Origin: Schmidtea polychroa
Taxonomy: Eukaryota
Direction: 5' to 3'
Length of the DNA stretch: 64,000 nt
Assembly (NCBI GenBank): GCA_044892525.1
Contig: CM097885.1
Coordinates: forward strand, 2,668,001 to 2,732,000
The position numbers and the translations under genes were made by a program. Below, in pieces: positions 1 through 56,051 of this stretch. Each line of letters begins with the position of its first letter. Position 1 is the first letter of the stretch. Under the pieces are notes generated by a model. That model was not told the origin of the DNA. It saw only the letters and a program-made list of their open reading frames with translations, and ran no database searches.

Positions 1-868
1 TAAATTATAACTGGATGTCCTATTTCTAGCATAACTACTAACCTCATCATATTTTAAAATAGCTAAAATGCTATATAAAAAACATGAATCATCGGTGTTT
101 TTTATATTAATTAAACAATATTTATTTTTTTTAGATAAGTAGGTAGTTCAATGAAACTCCTACCACTTAATCTACTTAGCCTACTTATCTTTGTTATGGT
201 GAAGTGAATTTCTGTTATTTTTTTTATGATCCAGCTACTTCCTAACTCTGTGATATTACTTATTTTCTCGTTTAGTTCCCTAATGCCTTCGTCAAAAAAT
301 GATGCAGTTAAAGGCTTTGCATAATTTGAGATATTATTAACCTTTATTTCCCCGTCTTTTTCAAATTCGATTGTTATTCCGAATTGAATTTTGACGGAGC
401 CTAATTCGTTAATAATATCTCGTAATTTTTTTATTAGTTGTTCAGGAAATATTATTTCTTTTATATTTAAGTCGCTTGTATTTAAGCTTAATATTTGATG
501 GGTACCTCTTAGATCTTTTTGTATTATTGGAACATTTCCACCTATTTGTATTATATTTAATCCATCCCAAGAGTCAAGGGAAATATTATCTAATCCGACC
601 TGGGATTCAACAACCAATCCATCATGGGATTCGACAACCAATCCATCATTGGATTCCACAAAAGGCAATCCGACCTGGGATTCAAAAGAAGAAGTATCTA
701 ATTTAATTTTTTAATTTTTATTATTTTTTTTTCTATAGTTGAGGGTCTTTTAAAAACACTATCTTTTTTAAAATTAAACCTATCTAAATGATTTTTATGT
801 TTATTATAAAAAACGCTATATGTTACGGGGTCACTAGTCTTACATACTGGACATATTTTAAAACACAT
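1..868 (-). CDS. Inverted second copy of the 5' part of pPolB-A, cut by the window edge
   Basis: Mirror image of 3965-4832, including the same A8 frameshift run (T8 at 125-132). Confidence 0.8.
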
Positions 869-1306
869 TTTGACGCTAAAGTTGACTTATTTAACATTTT
901 CATAATAATTTAATAAAAATAATGTGATGAACCCACAAAGTAATATCATTTTTCATCAAATTGCAAAACAGTAATAACGTTTTCATAAAATTGTAACAAA
1001 GTAATAACATATTTCAGATAAATTTTCAACAGTTGTAAAATATTTAAGCAAATTGTAACAAGATTAGAAAATATTACAACAAAGTAGTAACATATTTCAG
1101 AAAATTTCAACAAATTTGTAAAATATTTATCAAATTGTAACTAAAATAATAAAAATATTGCAACAAAGTAATAAAATAATAATGGTAATTAAGACAAATC
1201 AATACATTATTTCGAAGACGGACAACAAATTAAAAAGAATATTGTAACTAAAATAATAAAAATATTGCAACAAAGTAATAAAATAATACAACATTTTAAA
1301 CTCTAG

Positions 1307-1720
1307 ATCAATCCATTTTATAGAAAATTAAATTTTATCTATATAATATATGAATAAATATCCAAGGAAATTACGTTAACGTATAATAAATACAAATTTA
1401 TCGTAAAAACATGTGTGTATTACACACAAAACAAGATACATAATTTCTAATCAATCCATTTTATAGAAAATTAAATTTTATTTATATATTATATGAATAA
1501 AATCCTAAGAAAATTACGTTAACTGTATGAAAAATACAAATTTATCATAAAAACATGTGTGTATTACACACAACATACGAGACATAATTTTTAATCAAGC
1601 TATTTTATAGAAAATTAAATTTTATCTATATAATATATGAATAAAAATCCAAGAAAATTACGTTAACCGCGCGAAAAACTACAAATTTATTGTAAAAACA
1701 TGTGTGCATTACACACAAAG
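1307..1720. repeat. Three ~143-bp tandem units, each with a TGTGTG(T/C)A-T-TACACACA palindrome (mirror copy at ~3113-3526)
   Basis: Units start near 1307, 1450 and 1594 with atcaa..attttatagaaaattaaatttta and end in aaaacatgtgtgtattacacacaa-like sequence. Confidence 0.85.
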
Positions 1721-1902
1721 CATCAAACTGAAATTGTAATTGCGCCATGTTGTAGAGAATTAAATTCTGCCTATACATTGTTACACTTAAATCTCGATCA
1801 GACATGTGAAAAGAGACATAAAAGATAAAAAACAGTAGAGTAGTATGATGTGGGCCCGCCCGGCCAGGAGCCCGCTCGGCCACATATACCCCCTCCCCCC
1901 CG

Positions 1903-2925
1903 TTTGTAAAATAATGTTAATAATAATATTTATATATCAGTATATAGATTTTGCACTGGGCTTTAAAATAAGTGTTTGATTAATAAATTCGGATGATGGA
2001 AACATTACTTTTGGGAAGAAAAAAAGTAGGTCACCGCTGGACCAATTAATTTAAAAAAATTACGTAATAGTTCTAAAAATATTAGGCATCGTTCTAAAAA
2101 TATTAGGCATTGATTACGTAATAGTTCTAAAAATATTAGGCATCGTTCTAAAAGTATGACGTAATCTTTCTAAAAATATTAGGAATCGTTCTAAAAATAT
2201 TTGGCATCGTTCTAAAATATTAGGCATCGTTCTAAAAGTATGACGTAATCATTCTAAAAATATTAGGCATCGTTCTAAAATTATGACGTAATCATTCTAA
2301 AAATATTAGGCATCATTCTAAAAGTATGATGTAATCATTCTAAAAATAATAGACATCGTTCTAAAAATATTTGGCATCATTCTAAAATATTAGACATCAT
2401 TCTAAAAATGTGATGAGTCATTGTCTTTGTTCTAAAAATGTGATGAGTCATCGTATGATAAAAATCTATATCTCATTAGAAAGTTCTTGGACTGAGCTTT
2501 AAAATAAGCTATCGATCAATATAATATGTTGGCGGGAACAATAATTTTTGGGATGAAAAAAAGTAGGTCCCCGCTGGATCACTTAATAATATTTTGAAAA
2601 ATAATAATAATTTAACGTTGAAAAGATGGTGGTCATCAATTGTTAATAACATTAAAACTATTAAAGATATATAAGATACCTATAGCTCATTCGAAAGGCC
2701 TTGGACTGAGCTTGAAGATGAGGTATCGGTTAATAAAATTTGTTGGCGGGAACATTACTTTTGGGAAGAAAAAAAGTAGGTCCCCGCTGGATCACTTAAT
2801 TTAAAAAAAATTACGTAATAGTTCTAAAAATATTAGGCATCGTTCTAAAAATATTAGGCATTGATTACGTAATAGTTCTAAAAATATTAGGCATCGTTCT
2901 AAAAAAAAAAAATAAAATTTTTTCC
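1903..2925. repeat. Non-palindromic spacer: ~20-22 bp tandem array (ttctaaaaatattaggcatcg / ttctaaaagtatgacgtaatc) plus three copies of a ~100-bp motif
   Basis: The array spans ~2060-2450 and ~2810-2900. The motif ending ttttgggaagaaaaaaagtaggtccccgctggatcacttaat recurs at ~1955-2050, ~2472-2588 and ~2686-2800. Confidence 0.85.
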
Positions 2926-2987
2926 CGGGGGGGGGGGGAGGGGGTATATGTGATCTGGAGGGGACATGGTCTGGGGAGCTCACATCC

Positions 2988-4832
2988 TACTACTCTACTG
3001 TTTTTTATCTTTTATGTCTCTTTTCACATGTCTGATCGAGATTTAAGTGTAACAATGTATAGGCAGAATTTAATTCTCTACAACATGGCGCAATTACAAT
3101 TTCAGTTTGATGCTTTGTGTGTAATGCACACATGTTTTTACAATAAATTTGTAGTTTTTCGCGCGGTTAACGTAATTTTCTTGGATTTTTATTCATATAT
3201 TATATAGATAAAATTTAATTTTCTATAAAATAGCTTGATTAAAAATTATGTCTCGTATGTTGTGTGTAATACACACATGTTTTTATGATAAATTTGTATT
3301 TTTCATACAGTTAACGTAATTTTCTTAGGATTTTATTCATATAATATATAAATAAAATTTAATTTTCTATAAAATGGATTGATTAGAAATTATGTATCTT
3401 GTTTTGTGTGTAATACACACATGTTTTTACGATAAATTTGTATTTATTATACGTTAACGTAATTTCCTTGGATATTTATTCATATATTATATAGATAAAA
3501 TTTAATTTTCTATAAAATGGATTGATCTAGAGTTTAAAATGTTGTATTATTTTATTACTTTGTTGCAATATTTTTATTATTTTAGTTACAATATTCTTTT
3601 TAATTTGTTGTCCGTCTTCGAAATAATGTATTGATTTGTCTTAATTACCATTATTATTTTATTACTTTGTTGCAATATTTTTATTATTTTAGTTACAATT
3701 TGATAAATATTTTACAAATTTGTTGAAATTTTCTGAAATATGTTACTACTTTGTTGTAATATTTTCTAATCTTGTTACAATTTGCTTAAATATTTTACAA
3801 CTGTTGAAAATTTATCTGAAATATGTTATTACTTTGTTACAATTTTATGAAAACGTTATTACTGTTTTGCAATTTGATGAAAAATGATATTACTTTGTGG
3901 GTTCATCACATTATTTTTATTAAATTATTATGAAAATGTTAAATAAGTCAACTTTAGCGTCAAAATGTGTTTTAAAATATGTCCAGTATGTAAGACTAGT
4001 GACCCCGTAACATATAGCGTTTTTTATAATAAACATAAAAATCATTTAGATAGGTTTAATTTTAAAAAAGATAGTGTTTTTAAAAGACCCTCAACTATAG
4101 AAAAAAAAATAATAAAAATTAAAAAATTAAATTAGATACTTCTTCTTTTGAATCCCAGGTCGGATTGCCTTTTGTGGAATCCAATGATGGATTGGTTGTC
4201 GAATCCCATGATGGATTGGTTGTTGAATCCCAGGTCGGATTAGATAATATTTCCCTTGACTCTTGGGATGGATTAAATATAATACAAATAGGTGGAAATG
4301 TTCCAATAATACAAAAAGATCTAAGAGGTACCCATCAAATATTAAGCTTAAATACAAGCGACTTAAATATAAAAGAAATAATATTTCCTGAACAACTAAT
4401 AAAAAAATTACGAGATATTATTAACGAATTAGGCTCCGTCAAAATTCAATTCGGAATAACAATCGAATTTGAAAAAGACGGGGAAATAAAGGTTAATAAT
4501 ATCTCAAATTATGCAAAGCCTTTAACTGCATCATTTTTTGACGAAGGCATTAGGGAACTAAACGAGAAAATAAGTAATATCACAGAGTTAGGAAGTAGCT
4601 GGATCATAAAAAAAATAACAGAAATTCACTTCACCATAACAAAGATAAGTAGGCTAAGTAGATTAAGTGGTAGGAGTTTCATTGAACTACCTACTTATCT
4701 AAAAAAAATAAATATTGTTTAATTAATATAAAAAACACCGATGATTCATGTTTTTTATATAGCATTTTAGCTATTTTAAAATATGATGAGGTTAGTAGTT
4801 ATGCTAGAAATAGGACATCCAGTTATAATTTA
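2988..4832. repeat. Right arm of the large inverted repeat (mirror of 1-1845)
   Basis: Reverse complement of 1-1845. Imperfect similarity continues inward to about 1902/2926. Confidence 0.95.
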
Positions 4833-7748
4833 TCTGAATTAATATATAATCCATTGGACTTACCCATGAAATTAAAAGATATTAGAAAATTCGAGGCCAA
4901 AAATCCAGGCTTAATAATTAACGTTTTTTCTTATGACAATAACAAACAATTAATAGATAATTACGTATTAAAACACCCACATTTAGATATTATACATCGT
5001 TCCAAAGTTTTAAATGGAACTGTAATTAATTTACTATTATTAAATAAAGGAAACAATTTCCATTACGTTGCTATAAGTAATTTAAATAAGTTAATGAATT
5101 GTCATATCAACACTAGTTGTCCTACACGCATACGTTCATTATGGTGCCATCGGTGTTTGAATGGGTTTAATAATAAACACGCACTAGAAAAACATGAAAT
5201 ATTATGTAAACGTAATCAATTAGGAACAACTCTTTACACCTTCCCTCAAAATAAATTATTACAGTTTACTGACTGGTCGAAAACAGTAACTCCTCCTTTT
5301 GTAGTTTATGCAGATTTTGAGGCTATTTTACCTTCTGATAATGATCATTTCCAACGACACATGCCAATATCTGCTGGTCTTTTACTTGTAAATAACTTTG
5401 ACGGATCTAAATCTTATCAGCAGTTCATAGGTTTAGATTGCGTCGAGAGTTTTTTAAGTGCTATAGAGGATATAGCATTAAATAAGGTTCTTCCTTTTTA
5501 TTATAAAATGGGTAGGAAACCTATGATGAAATTAACAAAAATTGAACAACGTCAATTTGTTAGTGCATCTGTTTGTTATCTTTGTATGAAATCTATCGTC
5601 GATCCTGTTAGAGATCACGATCATTTTACGGGGAAATACTTGGGTGCAGCTTGTAGCACATGTAACGTAAATAGGAAAATAAATAAAATTTTGCCTATCG
5701 TATTTCACAACTTGAAGGGATACGATATGCACCATATACTTAAATATGGATTAAATAAATTTAAAAATTGGAATTTAGGGTGCATCCCAATAACTACGGA
5801 AAAATTTATATCTTTGATTGCTCATTTAGGTAAAATTAGCCTAAGATTCATTGATTCGTATCAATTTGTCAATGATTCTTTGGCTAAAGCAGTCAAAACT
5901 TTGAATTCTTTGCCTTTTACTAATTCTGCTTTTTCTGGCACCATAGTAAGTGAAAAAGGAATCTTCCCTTATAATTTCGCCACTTCTTTAGATATTCTCC
6001 AAACTACTTATGAATTACCACCAATCTGGGAGGGTGTCACTGAGCTTGAGTATGAAAAAGCTCAGGAGATTTGGGTAGAAACTAATTGCGTAACTTTATT
6101 AGATTATATGATGATCTACCTAAAACTTGATTGTTTTCTTTTGGCTGATTTCTTTCATCAGTTTCGGTTGAAATCCATTGCTCACAATAGATTGGAACCA
6201 TTGAATTATTTCGGAATTCCAGGCATGTCTTGGTCTTCTGCATTAATGTCTTTAAATGAACCAATTGAACTCATAACTGAAAACGAAATGTTTAGCTTTT
6301 ATGAGGGTGGAATAAGAGGCGGTCTTACTTTTGTGAATAAGCATTACGTAAAAACCGACGAGAACACTGAGTTACTATATATAGATATTAATAATCTTTA
6401 TGGCTGGGCTTTAAGTCAATCATTACCTTGTGGCGAATTTTGTTGGGTTCTTGATGGATTTGATAAAATAATGGATGAATGTAGGAATTTAAATCTTGAA
6501 TCTTTGTCTTATGGATACACACTTGAAGTTGATCTTGTAATTCCTTCTGAGCTTCATGATAAGTTGGATGATTTCCCTGTAGCTGCTGAAAAAATGAAAC
6601 CTGCTGGGTCTAAGGTTGAAAAATTATTATTAACTCATCTTCCAAAATCTAATTATGTTATTCATTGGAGATTATTAAAATTATATTTGGAACTTGGTGT
6701 TAAAGTAACACGTGTAAATAGGGGTGTAAGATTTAAGCAATCACCAATTTTTAAAAAATATATAGATACAAATACCGAATTAAGATCAAAAAGCGTAAAT
6801 AGCTTAGATAAAAATTATTATAAATTGCTAAATAATAGTTTATACGGCAAAACAGTTGAAAATTTAAAGAGAAGAATGAATCTTCGTCTTTGTACAACTG
6901 CCGGTAAATTAGTTAAATATTCGTCAAAACCGACTTTTAAAAAATCTATTAAAATAGCAGATAATTTAATTGCAGCACTATTGAATTCCGATTCTATATG
7001 TTTAGATAGACCGAGTTACATTGGTCAATCTGTACTTGATCTATCTAAACTTAGAATGTATGAATTGCAATATAAGGATCTGGAATCATTTCGCAATGAG
7101 TTTAATTGTAAAATTAATATCGTTGCAGGTGATACAGATTCTTTTTTCCTCGAAGTCATTAACTGCAAACTTGAGGTTCTTTTACCTGCAATGGTTCGAG
7201 ATAATTTATTGGATACTTCCAATTACAATAGTTGTCATTCCTTATATAGTAAGAACCTTGATTCAGTCATTGGAAAGTTCAAAGACGAGAATAAAGGTCT
7301 TAAATATAAGGAGTGGGTTTTTCTTAGACCTAAATGTTATAGCTTGTTGGGTGATGAGGAAACAAAAAAGGCTAAAGGTGTAACATTGAAAGGTGGTGAC
7401 ATAAAACATCAGTCATACCTGGATTGTTATAACACTAACCAGATTTTTTCGGTTCCTCAGACTAAAATAACAAGCAAAAATCATCAAATTTTTACAATTA
7501 AAAACACAAAAATAGCACTAACTAACAAAGATGACAAAAGGGTTTGGGTGGGGCAAAATACTAGTCTTGCATATGGGCATGTAAGATTAAGTGAATTAAA
7601 TATTGGAGAAAATGTTGGAGAAATTGTTGCAGAAAATGTTTCAGAAAATGTTGGAGAAAATGATGGAGAAGATGAGGAAGAATTAAATGAAGATTTTGGA
7701 GAAGATGACATCGATATCGATGACGTTATTTTGTCCGATGAGGACTAA
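3965..7748 (+). CDS. pPolB-A: Polinton/Maverick-type protein-primed family B DNA polymerase with N-terminal zinc finger, terminal-protein/vOTU-like region and endonuclease VII-like insertion; needs two -1 frameshifts as assembled
   Basis: Exo motifs YADFE, FHNLKGYD, YLKLDCFLLAD. Pol motifs YIDINNLYG, KLLNNSLYGK, GDTDS, KCY, KAKGV. Endo VII-like CYLC..VRDHDHFTGKYLGAACSTCN. The frame upstream of 4854 reads NKYCLINIKNTDDSCFLYSILA and joins ORF 4165-4722 (GSSW...SFIELP) across A8 at 4701-4708. ATG 3965 opens MCFKICPVCK..HKNH, joined across A6 at 4121-4126 (this join is less certain). Confidence 0.92.
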
Positions 7749-9017: not shown

Positions 9018-9135
9018 TATTTAAAATCCCAGAAAACATTGGGCATTACGGCAACAATTATGTAATCAAAAAATGTCTACGGAAAAAGTTATGCAATCAA
9101 AAGTTTGCAACATTTTTTACCCCCCCCCCCCCCCC

Positions 9136-9465
9136 TATTGCTGCCGCGGGCCACTAACTACCTACTTTTCTGTGGCTGATGGTTTCTTAACTGAAATAGT
9201 TTCATTATCTTATACTTCTAAAAAGAAAAGTTTATATAGAGAAGTTTGTTTATCAATAGAATTAGGAATCTCTAAATTATTTTTATTTCAATTAAAAGCT
9301 TTGGAAGATGGAATCCTGACAGACGAAGAAATAATGAAATCAAATCAAATAATACAAGATATAAAGAATGAGGTTATAAGATTAAAAAGGGAGGGCATGG
9401 TGGCTAATGTTATAAGTAATAAAAAAACATCTCGAGAAAAATGGTTAAAGAATTCTTACTTATAA
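9136..9465 (+). pseudogene. Probable 5'-truncated small accessory protein converging on pPolB-B
   Basis: A hydrophobic stretch is followed by SKL...KALEDGILTDEEI, resembling from memory a helical ORF often seen in animal Polintons (unverified). The coding-like sequence starts abruptly after the poly-C tract at 9120-9135. Confidence 0.4.
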
Positions 9466-9559: not shown

Positions 9560-12500
9560 TCAGTTATGGTTGAAAGCCAACCTATGAATCATTAATTTAT
9601 GATCTTTAAATTCTTTATCACTTAGACCTTTTATATATTCAGGATCAGTATTAAAATATTTAAGTTCTAAACATATAGGATTAAAAACTTGAGAATATAA
9701 AGGTTTCTCGATTTCTCTCTCGGGATAAATAATTTCAACATTATAAATATCAAGATCAGTAATCTTTGTATCATATAACTTATTCAACTTTTCTAGATTT
9801 TTTATTATAGGGATTAAATTATTTCCAATAGGTAGAGTTGTCTTTAAATCACTTAGTATGAATCTCTTATCATCATAATTTGATAATGATACTTTTTGAG
9901 ATTCTATCAAGTGAATATCATGGTTTTCACTTTTAAGTTGATGTATTTCATCAATTTTATCTTTATGATTTGGATTCAATGTATCTATATAATCTTGATG
10001 AGAAAGATTCTTTGCAACCACTCTCTGTATTCCTTTACATCTGTTATCCTTTACAGGTTTTTCTTCTTTAGGAAATATAGGATATCTATGTGTAATGGTT
10101 TCTTCTGTTTCTGGAGTTTTAAATATAAATGATCTAGTTATAAATTCAGGGTTTCTAAATGTTTCGTATGAATATTGTTTAGCACGAATAAATATTCCAT
10201 TTTCTATAGGAGTAAAAGGTTTTTCATCTTTAAACGAAAATAATTCTCCAGATGAATTTATTAAATTTGAAAGTATAGGATTTTCTTTCATATCTTTTTG
10301 TAAATCATGAGTTCTTATTGTTAAAAACATTGAATCTGTATCCATTGCATGCATTGATATATTTGCTCCGTATATAGGTTGTAAGATGTTATAATATGTT
10401 TCATACATTTGTAATTTTGAAAGTTCTAAAATTGTAAACCCTATAAATATTGGTTTGTTATATGTTTTCTCATAATTTTTTAATTCTACTGCAGTAAGAT
10501 TTTCAGAAAATACTTGTGCGTTTTTAAATGTAGGCTTTCCTAGCATGCGATTATAACGCTTAATATCTTTGGTAGTATTTGTTAGGAGTTCAATATGAGT
10601 ATATTTATCAACATTCTCCATTGTTTTCCCAAAGACTGAATTGTTTAAAATTTTATAATTATTATCTTTAAAAAGATTACCTTCTCTTTTTGCAATGTTT
10701 CGGCACCTAATGTTCTCCTCGATAAAAGCTTTCATGAATGGAGCTTGTTTAAATCTTATGACACTATGAACTTTTTTTAATATCATTCCTCGTGAAAGAT
10801 AAAATTGGAGGAGTCTATAGTGACAAAGATAAAACCTTCGATCTGTTTGATCACAAAGAAGTTTCATTGTTGGAGGTTTATCTTGTGAGATTTGCCATTC
10901 AGAAAGTTCGTTGATATCAATCTTTCTTCTTACAGGAGCTAATGGAAAATATCTTGTTCCTGATTTTATATCATCTGGATAGTCGAGGTCGCATTCTATA
11001 AAGTAACCTATTGGAGAATCTTTCGATGTTGAAAGTATTTCTTTCATAAGGTCATCTGTTGGGTTCTCTATTTCAGTGAAATCACCCATTGGTAAAAATT
11101 GAGTCATAATTCCTGAATATAAAGCTGTTGCATCTATATAAAGTATAAATATAGGATTTTTCATTGTTTCTAATAATTCTTTTAATTCCTCATTGTTAAT
11201 TTTCATATATGGATCATCAGGGTGTTTAGATAGTCTTCGGCTAGTAGTTATTGCATTTCTAGCTTTTATTTCTCTATTCCCCCTTACTGAAGAGACTCCT
11301 CCTCTAATGTTTGTTTTAATTTGGTTAAACATATCGAGGTTAGTTAAAAGATCTATAATTTATCACCTTCTTCTATATTTGAAGTCCAAATGGTATATAA
11401 CATAGTATCCCAAGCTAAAGAGGGTGCAGTTATATAATTATAAGGTTTAAGAACAAAAGATTTTGTAAATTCTTCAAAGCAATCTGCTAGAATATAAACA
11501 TCCAAGGATAAATACATACTTGTATATTCTCCTAAAGTTTTACACTTGAATAATTCCCACATTTTATTTGCTCGAGAATATTCTTGATTTGTAATATGAT
11601 TTTTTTGAAGTTGTGAATAGAAATCTTCTTGGCTAGGAAGACTTGTTTCATTATATCTTTCAAACGAGTCAACATAGTCATAAGGATATATTCCTTTTGC
11701 TAAACATGTAGGATATTCTTCTAGAGAAATATTATTTTTTTCCAAGAATTCTCGAGTGATTTTAAAATTTTCTGGTTTCATTGTTTTTGCTACTGCATCT
11801 AAAGACATTTGGAGAAAGTTTAACGAGTCTATAAATTTTAATTTTCCATATTCAATTGATTTATATTTTTCCTTTGTTAAGCCGATAACTTTGAAAGAGT
11901 TTTTAGCATTTGCTGCGAGGTGTTTAATAAATAGATGTATGTCATATCCAAAAAGATTATGAAATATAACAGGTATAAATTTAGGAGTATGGCAATTAAG
12001 ATTGCAATTTTTATGAGCTGCTCCTCGATAATTATTTTCCTTTTTTAAATGATCATGATCTATAACTTTTTCATCAGGAAGAATATTCTGTTTACACATC
12101 CAACAGTTGGAAGTATTTTCATATTCTTGTTGTTGTTGATTAGAAATATTTTGAGGATACTTTGTTTTTAATATTTTAAATATTTCATGTTCTAGATCAT
12201 TTATATTTTTAGTAAAATGATTCAAGACTTCTTCAGGGGTACCTCCTAGAATTGAATATTCTCTAGATTCTATGAGTTCAGGATAATTACTTTTAAATAA
12301 TAATTTATAAGCAGATGGTAATTGTTTAGTTTTTTTAACACTATTAGGTTTATTTCTTTTTCTTAGAAAGGCTTTCATCCTCTCTGGTTTCATCTTCTCT
12401 CCTGAGGAGTTCCATAAATCCATGAGTTTATTTTTTTCTATTATTTTTAAATATTGATAAACCAAATCTTGTTTATGGTTTATAGATTCAAAGTCACCAT

Positions 12501-13878
12501 AAAGAACTCCAACTGTTTGTAGTAAATTTGAAAAGTTTTTAAAATACATCTTGGGATTATTAGGCATTTTAATTAAAGCTGGATCATCTTTTTCACAAAA
12601 TCTTGTATGTTTAATCATAGAGTTTTTAGTTGTTGAATAATGAAGACATCTTTTACATGTTCCTCCTCCACTAGTTAGATTCTCTGGAGATGTAAAAGCT
12701 TGAAAGTTTTTTATTAAAACATAATGTTGATTATTTTCTTGTTCCAAGATTAAAAGATATATCTCGTTGTCCTGTGCTCCGTTATCCTTGGTTCCACTAT
12801 CTGAAATATAAATTGGAATAATTTCTTTCCCTATAACATGTTCATAAATATTAAGTTTAAGATTATTTAATTTTTCAAATTCTGGAATGTCTTCTAGTTT
12901 CATTGGGTGTTTGAATCCTTTGGGAAATATTAATTCATTTTCATATTGTTTGTATTTTGAAACTCTTTCGGGATTTGTTGCTTGAGGATGTAAATGTGCA
13001 AGTATTGACCAGATGAAACATTTGTTATCATTATTCTGTACATTTATAACATTTTTAGATTTAAAGGGTGTAGGAATATAAGATTTAGGATTGGGTGGTA
13101 ATCCTCTCCAATAATCAATCACTAAAGTTTGGAAAGAGTTGAATACTAAGTTTGAATCTCCTAATTCATTTTCTACTTCCTCTTGTTTTGCTTCTGCTGC
13201 TTTAATTATTTCTTTGATGGTTTTATCAAATCCTTTAATTGAAAATAAATATTTAAAAGGTATTCCAATTTCAACATCTAAGGGTGTTGTCTTTTCTTCT
13301 GCTCCTCTCCAGTATTTTGCTTTGATTATAATTTTATATTTTATAACATTATACCTTGTCGGTTTATAATTTTTTAAAGCTTCAGTGAAAGAATTTTTAA
13401 TATTTTTTTTATTTTTATTTATATATTCTCCAGGAGTTGCAGGCCCATTAATTTTTAATTGAAATTCATCTATATGATTAAAATTATCCCAGTTATATTT
13501 TTCTCTTTCAACATGATCAGGTTCTCCTTCTGAATGACATTCCTCATCGTCAGAATTTTGTTTTTTATTTTTACATTCTTTTATATGTTCTAAATAATAG
13601 AAATTTAGTTTTGTTGAAAAGTTACAATGAGGACATGTAAATATTTCTCTATTTTTCTCGATACAATTTTCAAAATGTTTATTATATCCAGAATGTAGAA
13701 ATCTTCCTTTACATTTAAGACAAAGTTTTGAATTTGTATCATTAAGATTATTTTCTTTTAATAAATGAGCTTTCGATTTTAAGTGAGAAATTAATCCAGT
13801 TTTATTTTTAAAAACTTTATTGCAAATATTACAATTCATTTTTAGAAATAAATTTTTTATTGGATACCCTGTTTTCAT
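9560..13878 (-). CDS. pPolB-B: second, divergent Polinton/Maverick-type protein-primed DNA polymerase with N-terminal zinc fingers; one -1 frameshift as assembled
   Basis: CNICNKVF..HLKSKAH finger; SYIPTP..INVQNNDNKCFIWSILA; YGDFES; CWMC..IDHDH..YRGAAHKNCN; FHNLFGYD; YLSLDVYILAD. ORF 9560-11332 then gives IRGG, YIDATALYS, KILNNSVFGK, MDTDS, KQY, CKGI. One extra base near 11359-11361 would fuse the two ORFs (…DKIIDLLTNLDMFNQ). Confidence 0.92.
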
Positions 13879-13944
13879 TTTATTTTTTAAGATTTATATT
13901 ATTCATTTTTTATAATAAAAATTTAAAAAATGACAAAAATTCAA

Positions 13945-14026
13945 ACCTTGATGGCGCAGTGGGCTAGACTGACACAGTGGTTCAAAATGCTAGCGGTTCA
14001 AATCACATCTGAGGTTAGTTTTTTTT
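13945..14026 (+). ncRNA. Putative RNA polymerase III (type 2 promoter) small RNA, tRNA-like but not a canonical cloverleaf
   Basis: A box TGGCGCAGTGG at 13952-13962, B box GGTTCAAATC at 13995-14004, T8 terminator at 14019-14026. The ends can pair (aaccttgatg / catctgaggtt). Confidence 0.5.
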
Positions 14027-14198
14027 CAACATAAAATAATATTAAAAATTTGAAAATAATATTGAAAATAGTGTGGGTATCTTATATTTATAAAGTACTT
14101 GTATATTTTATTTTATTTATTTTATTTTATTTTATTTTTTTATTAATTAATTATTTTTTAAACATAAATATGAAAAAAAAAATATTGAAACGGGTGAT

Positions 14199-14562
14199 GG
14201 TGGCGAACCGGTAATTATCGCCACCTGTCTTTCGAACACCCCCGGATCGATCCCGGTAATGTGCACATTTATTTCTCAGTTGTTTTCGGACCTCTTTCGA
14301 ATTCGCTTTCGAATTCATTTGTACTTTCGAGCAGCACACTTAAAACGCCGATGAAATCGTATTCGAGCGAGAAGCGAATAATAAGGCGTGCTGCTATTAT
14401 CGGATTGATTCTGATGTATGAGTCTGGCCAGCTTGTATATTGGAAGAGATTCGATAAACGAAAGAGGTTGATAAATAAAAAAAATGATCCGGATCAAAAA
14501 AAAACTGTTGAGGGGACAGTGAAAAAAAAAAAAAAATACCACTGTCCCCTCAGAGCAGTTTT
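14199..14562. other. Densely base-paired non-coding region upstream of pPolB-B
   Basis: Stems at 14199-206/14218-225, 14242-48/14486-92, 14290-99/14459-68 and 14330-37/14388-95, plus a perfect 13-bp stem at 14509-21/14540-52. Confidence 0.65.
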
Positions 14563-16043
14563 ACTATTTTTCATTTATTTTTTAATTTATATAATTTAAA
14601 ATCAATAACTTCCTCTAACTTTTTCATAATGCCATTTTCTTTTCTATTCTCTTTTTAGTTTGAAGCTTTTGAGTTTGAGGCTTTAAAGATTAAAACAGTT
14701 AGAGTCATTAAGGGTGGTTGTTTTCAAAATATAGGGTTAAAATACTATAAAAGTATAAGTTTTAGGTTGTTTTTCTAATAGCTTAAGTGATTTGGAGGCA
14801 TGTTTTTGTTGGGGGGCTGTTTTGGTTGGGTATATAACCACACTACTATCAACACCTAGCGGAGAATCGGTCAAACGTGAACTTTGGTTGTCATTTATTG
14901 TTGAGAGAAATATAATTTTGTGATTCAAATATATTTTGGGTATTTTATTGTTTTGATTAAAAGAACACGGGGAGTCAGAGGTTACCGACTTAAATTAACT
15001 AAAACCCAACAACTCTATATGACATGGGACTTCCGAACTCATGCCTCTGAGAGTACACATATTTCGTATTACATTAATATAAATACCGGAACATTGGCTA
15101 AACTTTATTCCGAATTCATTGCAGTAATCGAGATGGAAATCGTCACTTCTTCTTAGTGTATTTCCTCACTACTTAGTAGAGTATCTTTCTTATCATCTGC
15201 AATTGTCTTATGAGCGCAGAGTTTTCCCATAAAAAATACTAAATATGCAAAATTATTCATGAGGATACAGGAATAATAAAATAAAACAATTATTAAATGA
15301 GTAAAATGATTAAGGGAAACAAGTGTAATGCCAGACCTCCAAAAAGCAATAAGGAAAGTGAAATGGAAAAATAATAACAAAGAATCAATTAATAAAAATA
15401 ATAGTGGTTATTAATAAGTTAGTGCAAGTTGAAAATAGAAGTTTAAAAATAAAAATAAAACGCAAAAGGAATTCGCTCATCTTGACAAGTTGTTTGAGCT
15501 AATGAAATGGTATAAAACCCAAAAATTTATCGATTAACGAACAAAATTTTATCAAGTTTTATTCAATGTCCAAACCATAAAGCCAAATCAATTATTATAA
15601 TGAAAAAATCGACATATGACAAACAAAATTGTTAAAAAGGTAACGAATTGCAAATTTTTCGATTAAATTTCCAATAATTTCAATTTTATTTGAATATAAT
15701 TTAACCAATAATTAAAAGAAATACAAAAGTTTTGTTAATAAAAGATATATTCCCAATACTTCAAACTTCCCAGCAAATGACAGTTATTTTGCAACATTGT
15801 AATAGCTGTTACAAATTATTTTTACAAAAACTTTTATAATTTATTAGAAATTTCTATTTGTTTAGGTGAATGAATAAAATCATTTTTAATATGTAGCTAA
15901 ATGAATTTCAAAATTATTTATTAAATTTCTGATGTTAATTATATTTTAATTTTCTGTTTATTTTATAATAATTTACTTTTGGAATTATTGATTGAATAAA
16001 ATATTCTTTTTTCAGTAAAAATTTCTATTTTTGATATCATTAA

Positions 16044-31892
<15,849 letters not shown>

Positions 31893-32123
31893 TTGGTCGC
31901 CAACCCCCCCCCCCCCAACCCTTCCATCCATCTCATCCTCTCCAATCTACTCGGCTCTCCTTCAATTGGGGAACGATTGTAATTATTGTAACTCGAGATG
32001 TCAACTATTTCTTGTTTTGCATTTTCCTTACTTATTTACTATTATTTCTGACTCGCCGTTTTCCATGAACATCTTGAGCTGTTATTATTCAATTGATTTT
32101 CTTTTTTACTTTATTTTCTTTTA

Positions 32124-34068: not shown

Positions 34069-35930
34069 TAAAGGGTAGTAAGAAAGAGTTGCTGATATGA
34101 ATCATGTACGGACTTTCGAAAACCACCACACGACGATTTCCAAACGAAAGAGCATCCATGTCAATGATCATGTTGATAATGTGCGAAGACAGCGAAAACT
34201 ACAGAGCAGGTGAGCTCCAGTGTTAGGACTAGTCCCTGTATACTTTCTCACAATATTTCTGAATTTCGTCCAGCAAATTTAAATCGACATCATTCGTAGT
34301 CACACATCGCTTTGCAATGACTTCAGTGTGATCTTCTGTCTTAAATTTTATTTCTATTTTGAAATTGTCTTCTGGATCGAAACTGATTTTGACATCCATC
34401 ATATATTCTTCTGTTGGGTTATTACTGTTAAAGTCGCTATTGAATCTAACTCCTCATGTTCTTTGTCTCAGTTATCAAGATAAAATCCGACAAAAAACTT
34501 CATTAAATATTATCAAATTTTGATACAAAGTTCTCAATTGCACACTCTTTATTAAAAATTGAAAGCAAGTGACTTTAAAGTAGACCGCTTTATTCAGATT
34601 TGGCAATGATTTCTATCTTAAAATATGAATTGCCTAAGTTTCTTGCTCTTTAATCACGATATAGTAGTTTTCTCTCCTCGACCAACTGGCATTTGCCAAA
34701 CATTGTCGTTTACTTTTTTATTACGACTCATCCTGCTTACTCGTATAATTAAATTAGCATCGACCAAAAACAAAATATTTGAATGGGTATCATCTTGCCT
34801 TTGTTTACGAATCTCGTTTTGCTTATTTAAAATTAATAATTTTGAAAGTAGGCCTAATTATATTATCAAATTGTTTATGTGTCGGTTTTTTACATAAATC
34901 CGGCATCCCACATTAATTTTATTCATTTATTTTTAATTAATTTATATTCATTGAATATCTTTTTCTGGAGAACCTTCGTCGATTTTTTATCAGTATATCT
35001 GTGTACGTCTCAGCGTTTGCTATCCATACATACTAACTTCCTTCCACATACGTCATTTTAAGATTTTCAAACTTTTAATTTATTTTCGATTTTTATAGGC
35101 TTTCACATTTTATTGATTTTTACATTTAATGTTTTTGTTGGATTTAAATAATTTTTTGTCAGTAATCTCAGACTCCTAATGTCCCTTTAATTGAAAATCA
35201 CAAATAACAAACTACTTAACGTATATTTGTTTTATTACAATTTTTTACAACGCATCGGATAAGCAAACAAAATTATTTCTTAATTACTTTATCAAGCTCC
35301 TCTGCGGGATATCTGGACTATGTACGATTCACAGCAATAGATCTCACCTGCTCATGGATTTTCAACCACTGTATACAGCAACAACATGGTTATTACCATG
35401 GGTATACAAATGGTATAAAGTACAAAAGTAATGAAGGCGTTTTAGGAAGGAGCCAATTCAAAATTTATAAATTCCCTAACACATTAAAAAAATTACACGC
35501 CCCTAAGCGCCAACACCATCATAATTTCCTTTATCATCAATTCTGTGCATGACACAACTTTATTTGTCTTTTTCATTCGAGCTACATTTTATTTAAATTT
35601 ATTTAAATTTACTGACCTCCACATTTCCAATTTCCAACTTTTTTGAGTTCTATATATACGAACCCTAACACTTCAGTAGACATTTATTTCTAGCTTAGTT
35701 GAGCTTCCCGACATATATACTTACCCCAGAACCCAACCGAAGGTTCCGAGTGTTCATCCAAGCTGTATAGTGTTAACGTCAATTTAAAAATTTTGTGAGC
35801 TTGCTTTTTGATGACTGTTGTTACTGTTTTTAAACAAAGATTTCGTTTATGAAACTAAAGCTTTGTTTTATTAATTAAATCTCCTTTATTTTTACTACTG
35901 ACCTTCTTTCTTTACAATGTCTTAGATCTT
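34069..35930 (-). CDS. Probable unidentified gene(s) with short introns, divergent from the apyrase
   Basis: Exon-like frames with splice signals, e.g. …MMDVKISFDPEDNFKIEIKFKTED…QKYCEK | 45-bp GT-AG intron | FSLSSHIINMIIDMDALFVWK…TTL*, and …KIFKLTLTLYSLDEHSEPSVGFW|gtaagt. I could not assemble a full model and recognise no family. Confidence 0.35.

Positions 35931-36399: not shown

Positions 36400-44032
<7,633 letters not shown>

Positions 44033-47394: not shown

Positions 47395-56051
<8,657 letters not shown>

Follow-up and report, generated by a model that had tools for sequence, protein, structure and literature searches.

The virus-associated (VA) RNA genes of adenoviruses adjoin and oppose the start of the gene for the preterminal protein (pTP), a placement that our literature search did not itself confirm. 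[quoted passage not shown] Adenoviruses are considered to be derived from Polintons, whose pPolB carries the terminal protein (TP) at its N terminus; the available excerpts of this source do not mention VA RNA (PMC11161782). Polinton-type insertions are also described for flatworms (10.1101/2025.04.19.649669). Here, we analyze a pPolB gene of Schmidtea polychroa, pPolB-B, and two candidate Pol III units next to it, designated unit 1 and unit 2. All coordinates refer to the window, i.e., the whole stretch of 64,000 nt that was analyzed (assembly GCA_044892525.1, contig CM097885.1, positions 2,668,001-2,732,000, forward strand).

Partial parallels exist in other viruses and elements. The TMERs (for tRNA-miRNA-encoded RNAs) and vtRNAs of murine gammaherpesvirus 68 (MHV68) share with this locus a tRNA-type promoter head, a repeated A-box motif and processable downstream hairpins (PMC8223928), and bovine leukemia virus (BLV) resembles it in carrying several hairpin-forming Pol III units within an integrated element (PMC12498455). 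Pol III-type genes are also present in Polinton-related elements, namely as tRNAs and non-coding RNAs of polinton-like viruses (PLVs) and MELD viruses: 558 tRNA and 10 miRNA matches were found in 8,300 PLV genomes (PMC12220804), and tRNA flags appear in a figure legend of PMC8502044. Likewise, tRNA-derived heads of short interspersed elements (SINEs), tRNA pseudogenes and TFIIIC/tDNA barriers display A and B boxes on a decayed tRNA scaffold in many copies. Mavericks have so far been described by their proteins. The adintovirus paper mentions neither VA RNA nor polymerase III (PMC8502044), Maverick surveys in vertebrates (PMC8097293) and nematodes (10.1101/2023.08.22.554363) do not mention tRNA, and the literature listings and passages that we examined contained no report of a Pol III-transcribed non-tRNA RNA of an animal Maverick.

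The reading that we prefer, which we hold tentatively and as slightly short of an even call, is that tandem, element-borne type 2 Pol III units diverge from pPolB-B and are likely transcribed. Unit 1 would give an RNA of ~78 nt, probably worn down from a tRNA, and unit 2 a hairpin-rich RNA of ~370 nt that might act as a Dicer/Argonaute substrate or decoy; unit 2 is, on our best reading of the sequence, the likely payload of the cassette.

Predicted Tandem Type 2 Promoters

Unit 1 (13944-14026, plus strand) is a predicted type 2 Pol III gene of ~78 nt. Its A box (13952-13962) agrees with the consensus TRGYnnARBGG at 11 of 11 positions and its B box (13995-14005) with GGTTCRAnYCY at 10 of 11 (consensus versions as printed in PMC7279448), both are internal, and their starts lie 43 nt apart, near the ~42 nt expected of a type 2 gene. 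The unit contains no internal T3 and closes with a terminator-like T8 run (14019-14026), to which many copies add one T. The original prediction, made from the sequence alone, had described consensus boxes at tRNA-like spacing, a T8 terminator and a Pol III-type unit, and at the sequence level all of this is borne out. Its GC island ~70 bp from the polymerase ATG was also found, with 48% GC in the unit versus 8% and 10% in the flanks; unit 1 points away from the pPolB-B start ATG (13878, minus strand) at a distance of 66 bp. An overlapping second pair of A-like (10/11, at 13970) and B-like (8/11, at 13979) motifs occupies 13970-13989 of the plus strand, and a weak TATA-like word (13911-13919, plus strand) is located ~30 nt before the unit in a flank of 92% AT.

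A second promoter, which the original prediction did not contain, follows ~250 bp downstream of the first (249 bp apart). Unit 2 (14190-14571, plus strand) is likewise a predicted type 2 gene; its A box (14201-14211) and B box (14244-14254) each match at 10 of 11 positions, and the B box, again 43 nt past the A-box start, lies in a T-arm-like hairpin with 4/5 pairs. The acceptor register of unit 2 reaches 3/7 pairs, and a weaker third A/B pair (9/11 each) is found at 14360/14402. Throughout the 64 kb, only units 1 and 2 combine a B box of at least 10/11 with an A box that starts 41-45 nt before it. At this spacing, two units appeared in 0/300 and one unit in 17/300 block shuffles, whereas a looser spacing of 35-69 nt gave two units in 16/300. 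Unit 1 is the sole match in the window to A box, B box and T4 combined, a combination that arose once in 2/300 block shuffles; A and B boxes lacking a T run arose in 29/300.

Probable tRNA Ancestry of Unit 1

Several features of unit 1 are tRNA-like. The span from A-box start to B-box end, 53, is the mode among real tRNAs with the same boxes (53/72), and the acceptor register pairs at 6/7 positions, which 1.2% of shuffles achieved when the letters outside the boxes were permuted 100,000 times. The terminal stem claimed by the original prediction is real and joins the stretch from 13944 onward to 14006-14016 through 10 bp and a single bulge, at pair probabilities of 0.82-0.97, though it begins one base before the start that had been given. 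Of the two internal stems claimed, ACUG/CAGU has a pair probability of 0.58-0.80, and GCUAG/CUAGC, at 0.13, is not stable. The remaining cloverleaf is broken. The T stem retains 2/5 pairs, in agreement with the predicted lack of a pairable T-arm (66/69 real tRNA matches have 5/5), the D stem forms at most 2/4 pairs and anticodon stems clear of the T arm at most 3/5.

ARAGORN at its default setting returned no match in the window and displayed unit 1 only at a threshold that yields 76 window matches. Rfam at gathering score matched nothing in the whole window, and a comparison of unit 1 with 4227 Rfam families at E ≤ 10 produced only two chance minus-strand matches; the Infernal/Rfam check that had been proposed for the unit thus gave neither a tRNA nor a VA match. 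We also built a tRNA covariance model from 67 viral tRNAs lacking the unit 1 A-box word, which does recover the tRNA-like units of three related loci (L158, L203 and L224). The disrupted stems of the D, anticodon and T arms, together with negative outcomes of ARAGORN, Rfam and this model, led us to reject unit 1 as a tRNA; descent from a tRNA is likely. Which tRNA was the parent is not evident from a pattern search (0 matches), from blastn against phage (no match) or from the 213 tRNAs of the viral set, among which no isotype is prominent; unit 1 may bear a resemblance to eukaryotic tRNA-Trp. A role as suppressor tRNA for the break in pPolB-B was discarded, as the break is a frame change and unit 1 has no anticodon arm.

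The negative scanner results are what a chance motif match in a GC-richer patch would predict. This explanation is hardly credible in view of the shuffles: boxes plus T run in 2/300, two units in 0/300 and the acceptor register in 1.2%. Could unit 1 itself be an effector, i.e., a short decoy of the VA-I or vault RNA kind for a double-stranded-RNA sensor or a tRNA-binding protein? Its stable closing stem, strong boxes and T8 would suit such a function. We nevertheless rate it as very unlikely, since ~78 nt compare with the ~160 nt of a VA RNA, a long apical stem is missing, the fold z score is about zero and the Rfam families gave nothing beyond the two chance matches. Nor does unit 1 belong to the VA RNAs, as it gave no match to the Rfam VA model and falls short of their ~160 nt and strong structure; no vault RNA match was found at E ≤ 10, a search that a divergent invertebrate form could escape. 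The promoter looks like the retained part of unit 1 rather than the RNA fold, and therefore the main role of unit 1 is probably to bring Pol III machinery to the vicinity of the pPolB-B promoter.

Predicted Hairpins of Unit 2

Unit 2 has a predicted length of ~95 nt if transcription ends at the T4 at 14283, and of ~370-380 nt if it continues to the T4 at 14559 or the T5 at 14567. The short form appears unstructured (z -0.36 relative to shuffles). The supported fold lies past this T4 and, because of this, read-through of 14283 is assumed. Over 14190-14562 the sequence folds into a multi-branch structure at z -9.67; its core (14240-14500) is strand-biased, with z -4.65 on the plus strand versus -1.27 on the minus strand, and G.U accounts for 11/77 pairs. 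Three plus-strand arms can be distinguished: a hairpin at 14329-14396 (z -3.39 on the plus and -3.13 on the minus strand), a 60-nt, G.U-rich, pre-miRNA-like arm at 14397-14456 (z -5.18 versus +0.92), and a terminal hairpin with an A-rich loop, followed by T4, T5 and T6 runs, at 14505-14558 (z -7.07). Among the 40 variant rows listed out of 266, the only substitutions in unit 2 are at 14300 and 14403; both are A-U/G-U switches on the plus strand, and 14403 keeps the pairing within the 60-nt arm. In addition, contig joints from 14328/14331 to 14399 correspond to removal of the entire arm 14329-14396 in some copies.

Rfam scans of unit 2 by E-value gave weak unrelated matches or none, and a pattern of its stems matched six viral sequences, all unrelated. 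A hammerhead ribozyme was rejected, as the core motifs are not in a workable order and no Rfam ribozyme matched. Similarly, the 82-aa open reading frame (ORF) at 14351-14599 was dismissed as coding sequence, as copies carry frame-changing indels at 14476-14522. Avoidance of T runs was dropped as evidence for unit 2 because it is not significant.

An alternative that operates at the DNA level holds that the A and B boxes bind TFIIIC/TFIIIB as a barrier or nucleosome-free anchor, shielding or damping the pPolB-B promoter ~40 bp away, with the RNA as a by-product. It fits the contrast between near-perfect boxes and disrupted D, anticodon and T stems, the lack of a significant unit 1 fold, the doubled A/B-like motifs and the position of unit 1 between pPolB-B and the element end; in yeasts, TFIIIC-bound sites serve as barriers (PMC10530723). 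It leaves unexplained, however, the strand-biased, G.U-rich fold and the pair-keeping variants of unit 2, as well as why unit 1 has retained a closing stem and a T8, and we consider it rather unlikely, though it is the main rival.

Multi-Copy Context and Possible Separability of the Module

The units are part of a repeat. Contigs from 4 of 24 listed sequencing runs were mapped on 12500-16500; runs X1 and X5 share a species label and stem from two studies, and X1 may be the source sample. Summed contig depth over 12500-15045, which is not equivalent to copy number, amounts to 0.47-2.1 million in X1 and 0.04-0.56 million in X5. Past the 14912-15045 bin it drops to 221 and 39, respectively, on a single unique flank contig, and single contigs within 12500-15045 reach 12x and 46x this flank. 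In both runs, deep cover is continuous from the pPolB-B ORF through unit 1 to ~15012. The data support that unit 1 lies inside a polymorphic multi-copy repeat and not in host flank, and the claim of an element-borne unit is upheld by a depth that stays orders of magnitude above the single-copy flank from the pPolB-B ORF through unit 1. We infer that unit 1 and pPolB-B are linked in other copies as well, because of the continuous cover and the few loose contig ends between them among the 24 listed of 1,308.

Part of the repeat seems to have some independence. The AT-rich TATA..ATG context of the pPolB-B start (13872-13900) is repeated at ~14568-14593, and this pair of direct repeats of ~28 nt flanks a module of ~700 bp that contains both units. 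A joint from 13878 to 14578, which deletes the module, is present in one contig, weakly documented by a short side of 24 at a depth of 6,446. In run X10, which has another species label and an unstated library type, cover is concentrated on 13974-14510, at two to five orders of magnitude above the pPolB-B ORF; no cover falls on the unique flank, and within unit 1 the 3' half is covered far more deeply than the 5' half. The profile may stem from non-autonomous derivatives, from a related species or from the library type; a restriction-site library was considered as its cause, and no enzyme clearly fits. The ~700-bp module thus seems partly separable from pPolB-B. None of the listed runs is recorded as RNA. 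In run X8, which we only guess to be RNA, contigs fall on unit 1 and on 14242-14509, while the 14108-14241 bin is empty; this run was not used as evidence. As further observations, a GT that is a candidate micro-exon donor comes after the outer ATG of the minus strand near 14574; at 14608-14612, numerous contigs (25 and 34 in X1) contain additional sequence that is missing from this copy; and 15314-15581 is a separate host-flank repeat, covered at more than 100x flank depth in X1 and deeply in X10.

According to a neutral explanation, the module is a passenger, i.e., a captured tRNA pseudogene or a SINE- or MITE-like unit upstream of pPolB-B that was amplified with the element or alone. The direct repeats, the joint that removes the module, the X10 profile and the lack of the unit in distant relatives (see below) are in line with it, and unit 1 was noticed for its boxes, which biases the impression of box conservation. 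Against it stand the T8 directly after unit 1 and the lack of the A-tail or terminal repeats that a retroposed SINE would have, the equal spacing in two units, the structure-keeping variants of unit 2 and the lack of a second copy of unit 1 elsewhere in the 64-kb window. We regard this explanation as unlikely. The same evidence bears on the SINE head that the original prediction had entertained: with a T8 directly behind it, unit 1 would hardly lead a longer SINE transcript, while the partial separability of the module is compatible with the idea.

The pPolB-B Element and Its Relatives

The window belongs to an AT-rich, compact, animal-type genome with tiny introns, and the best named matches to one of its host proteins, RGS7, come from flatworms. 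The first 14 kb of the window contain two distant protein-primed PolB genes, pPolB-A and pPolB-B, with 27-29% mutual identity. Both parts of pPolB-B are on the minus strand: an N-terminal ORF of 841 aa with a C2H2 finger (11353-13878; 23-35% identity to PolB-type relatives) and a C-terminal ORF of 590 aa with PF03175 (9560-11332). Three of the related proteins belong to clusters of 49-168 members on large contigs, and polinton-like viral contigs are also among the relatives. An alignment search provided 110 related pPolB loci (30 viral and 80 metagenome) with 897 ORFs, and only pPolB and one small accessory ORF of these match the window. The latter is represented by a remnant at 9073-9465 (plus strand), and the same ORF adjoins pPolB in related locus L206 (E 1.7e-5, 36% identity).

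Hallmarks of Mavericks include a protein-primed PolB, genes for integrase, capsid and ATPase, and terminal inverted repeats with a 6-bp target-site duplication. This copy has a protein-primed PolB, split as described, a single (ACT)2 motif at 14847, no integrase, capsid or ATPase match and no matching left end. It is consistent with a truncated Maverick-type element, an assignment made on the basis of pPolB, the accessory ORF and the copy depth. A candidate right end lies within 14842-15012, either at the (ACT)2 motif (14842-14847; end motif taken from PMC8097293) or at the depth step near 15012. An older dispersed repeat abuts or forms this end: 14918-15012 shares ~74% similarity with 35135-35191 and with 54099-54162.

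Among the 110 related loci (791,468 bases), the A/B scan gave 4 matches versus a shuffled mean of 0.65. Two are intact tRNA-Thr loci and two are degenerate units (L158 and L217). Homologues of the units were not found in metagenome contigs (0). From these sequences, the layout of a unit beside pPolB is lineage-specific and not general for the polymerase clade. Separately, the L158 unit (positions 289-362) is tRNA-like, with perfect A and B boxes and a T4, and faces an intact pPolB of 1,217 aa from ~1 kb upstream; it may be a host SINE or part of the element.

The other polymerase gene, pPolB-A (4100-7748), extends upstream of a 960-aa ORF in another frame, and the consensus scan of the window placed no A+B unit in its vicinity. 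Its 5' part is included in an inverted repeat of 1,901 bp and 99% identity (1-1901/2932-4832), inside which a 1-kb core with tandem repeats is bordered by AGTAGT-type ends, located at 1839 and 2994, in mutually facing orientation. The layout of 1-4832 is a fold-back arrangement with Maverick-like end motifs. Further content of the window comprises a host leucine-rich repeat gene with tiny introns (16044-32000), a GIY-YIG fragment (20714-21139), a DDE transposase ORF (40644-41660) and an ORF that fuses EAP30 and proteasome-subunit fragments (50993-51664).

Discussion

If the tandem Pol III units operate as we propose, established Pol III biology would imply that both boxes are bound by TFIIIC, which then positions TFIIIB upstream on AT-rich DNA (type 2 promoter mechanics and termination are described in PMC7279448 and PMC12498455). 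Pol III would stop at the T8 and release the ~78-nt RNA of unit 1, closed by its stem. At unit 2, it would read through the single T4 and yield a hairpin RNA of ~370 nt, of which the 60-nt arm might be processed. By analogy with TMERs and with VA RNAs, which inhibit PKR and saturate Dicer/RISC, this RNA could act as Dicer/Argonaute substrate or decoy, with a proposed effect on host silencing; precedents for hairpin RNAs are the VA RNAs (PMC11240694), the TMERs (PMC8223928) and the BLV miRNAs (PMC12498455).

Several observations weigh against this proposal. The fold of unit 1 is no better than that of shuffles (z +0.79 and -0.13), and the purpose-built covariance model gave six weak matches in the window, none of them at unit 1 or unit 2; these two results leave register and spacing as the sole support for tRNA ancestry. 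The body of unit 2 is interrupted by the T4 at 14283, its scarcity of T runs is equalled by 54% of shuffles, and slippage at hairpins in the DNA would account just as well for its arm deletions and terminal hairpin. The unit sequences were judged on one copy, that of the window. In this copy, pPolB-B is split into the 841-aa and 590-aa ORFs in different frames, and the 897 ORFs from the related loci gave no integrase, capsid or ATPase match in the window. No contig that bridges the pPolB-B ORF and unit 1 was among the 32 pieces listed of 45,199, and all run data are contigs, which cannot show transcript starts, strand or level. Lastly, among the distant relatives, 40 loci have at least 400 nt before a full-length pPolB start, and none of them (0/40) carries a unit within these 400 nt.

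The comparison with described systems is accordingly one of partial likeness. Since the TP is located at the N terminus of Polinton pPolB, the position of the units would be analogous to that of the VA genes beside pTP. Unlike VA RNAs, however, the units measure ~78 and ~95/370 nt versus ~160 nt, show no Rfam match or demonstrated homology, and unit 1 has no significant fold. The VA-RNA-like arrangement of the original prediction therefore suits unit 1 poorly, at half the VA length, and is more apt for unit 2 and for the tandem layout. In contrast to TMERs, unit 1 ends at the T8 with no hairpin behind it and forms no cloverleaf, and the head of unit 2 has only a T-arm-like hairpin; the TMER-type architecture of unit 2, a box-bearing head plus the 60-nt arm, lacks a cloverleaf head and would require T4 read-through. 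BLV B boxes lie past the terminator, whereas here both A and B boxes are internal at tRNA spacing. The PLV and MELD genes were identified with Rfam or ARAGORN and interpreted as tRNAs that serve translation, while the present units are missed by both and cannot form a cloverleaf. Finally, SINE heads, tRNA pseudogenes and barriers differ in that here a terminator follows the head directly, no tail is present and the head lies within a DNA element beside a second unit; a barrier role at this locus is putative.

A broader proposal is that the Mavericks of animals carry counter-silencing cassettes of their own that resemble VA RNAs, i.e., Pol III genes in tandem that diverge from the start of TP-pPolB, with one of them supplying a pre-miRNA-like arm to Dicer/Argonaute. 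Such cassettes would have gone unnoticed by tRNA and Rfam scanners, and the adenovirus VA RNAs could have arisen from a precursor of this kind. We consider this generalization decidedly unlikely at present. If the units only serve as TFIIIC sites, the locus would exemplify a DNA element that borrows a tDNA-type boundary. If they are expressed, a high-copy, germline-resident, virus-like element would possess its own small-RNA arm, and thereby a route to blunt host silencing or to shield its promoter. Such an element would also serve as an extant reference point for how the VA RNAs of adenoviruses arose.
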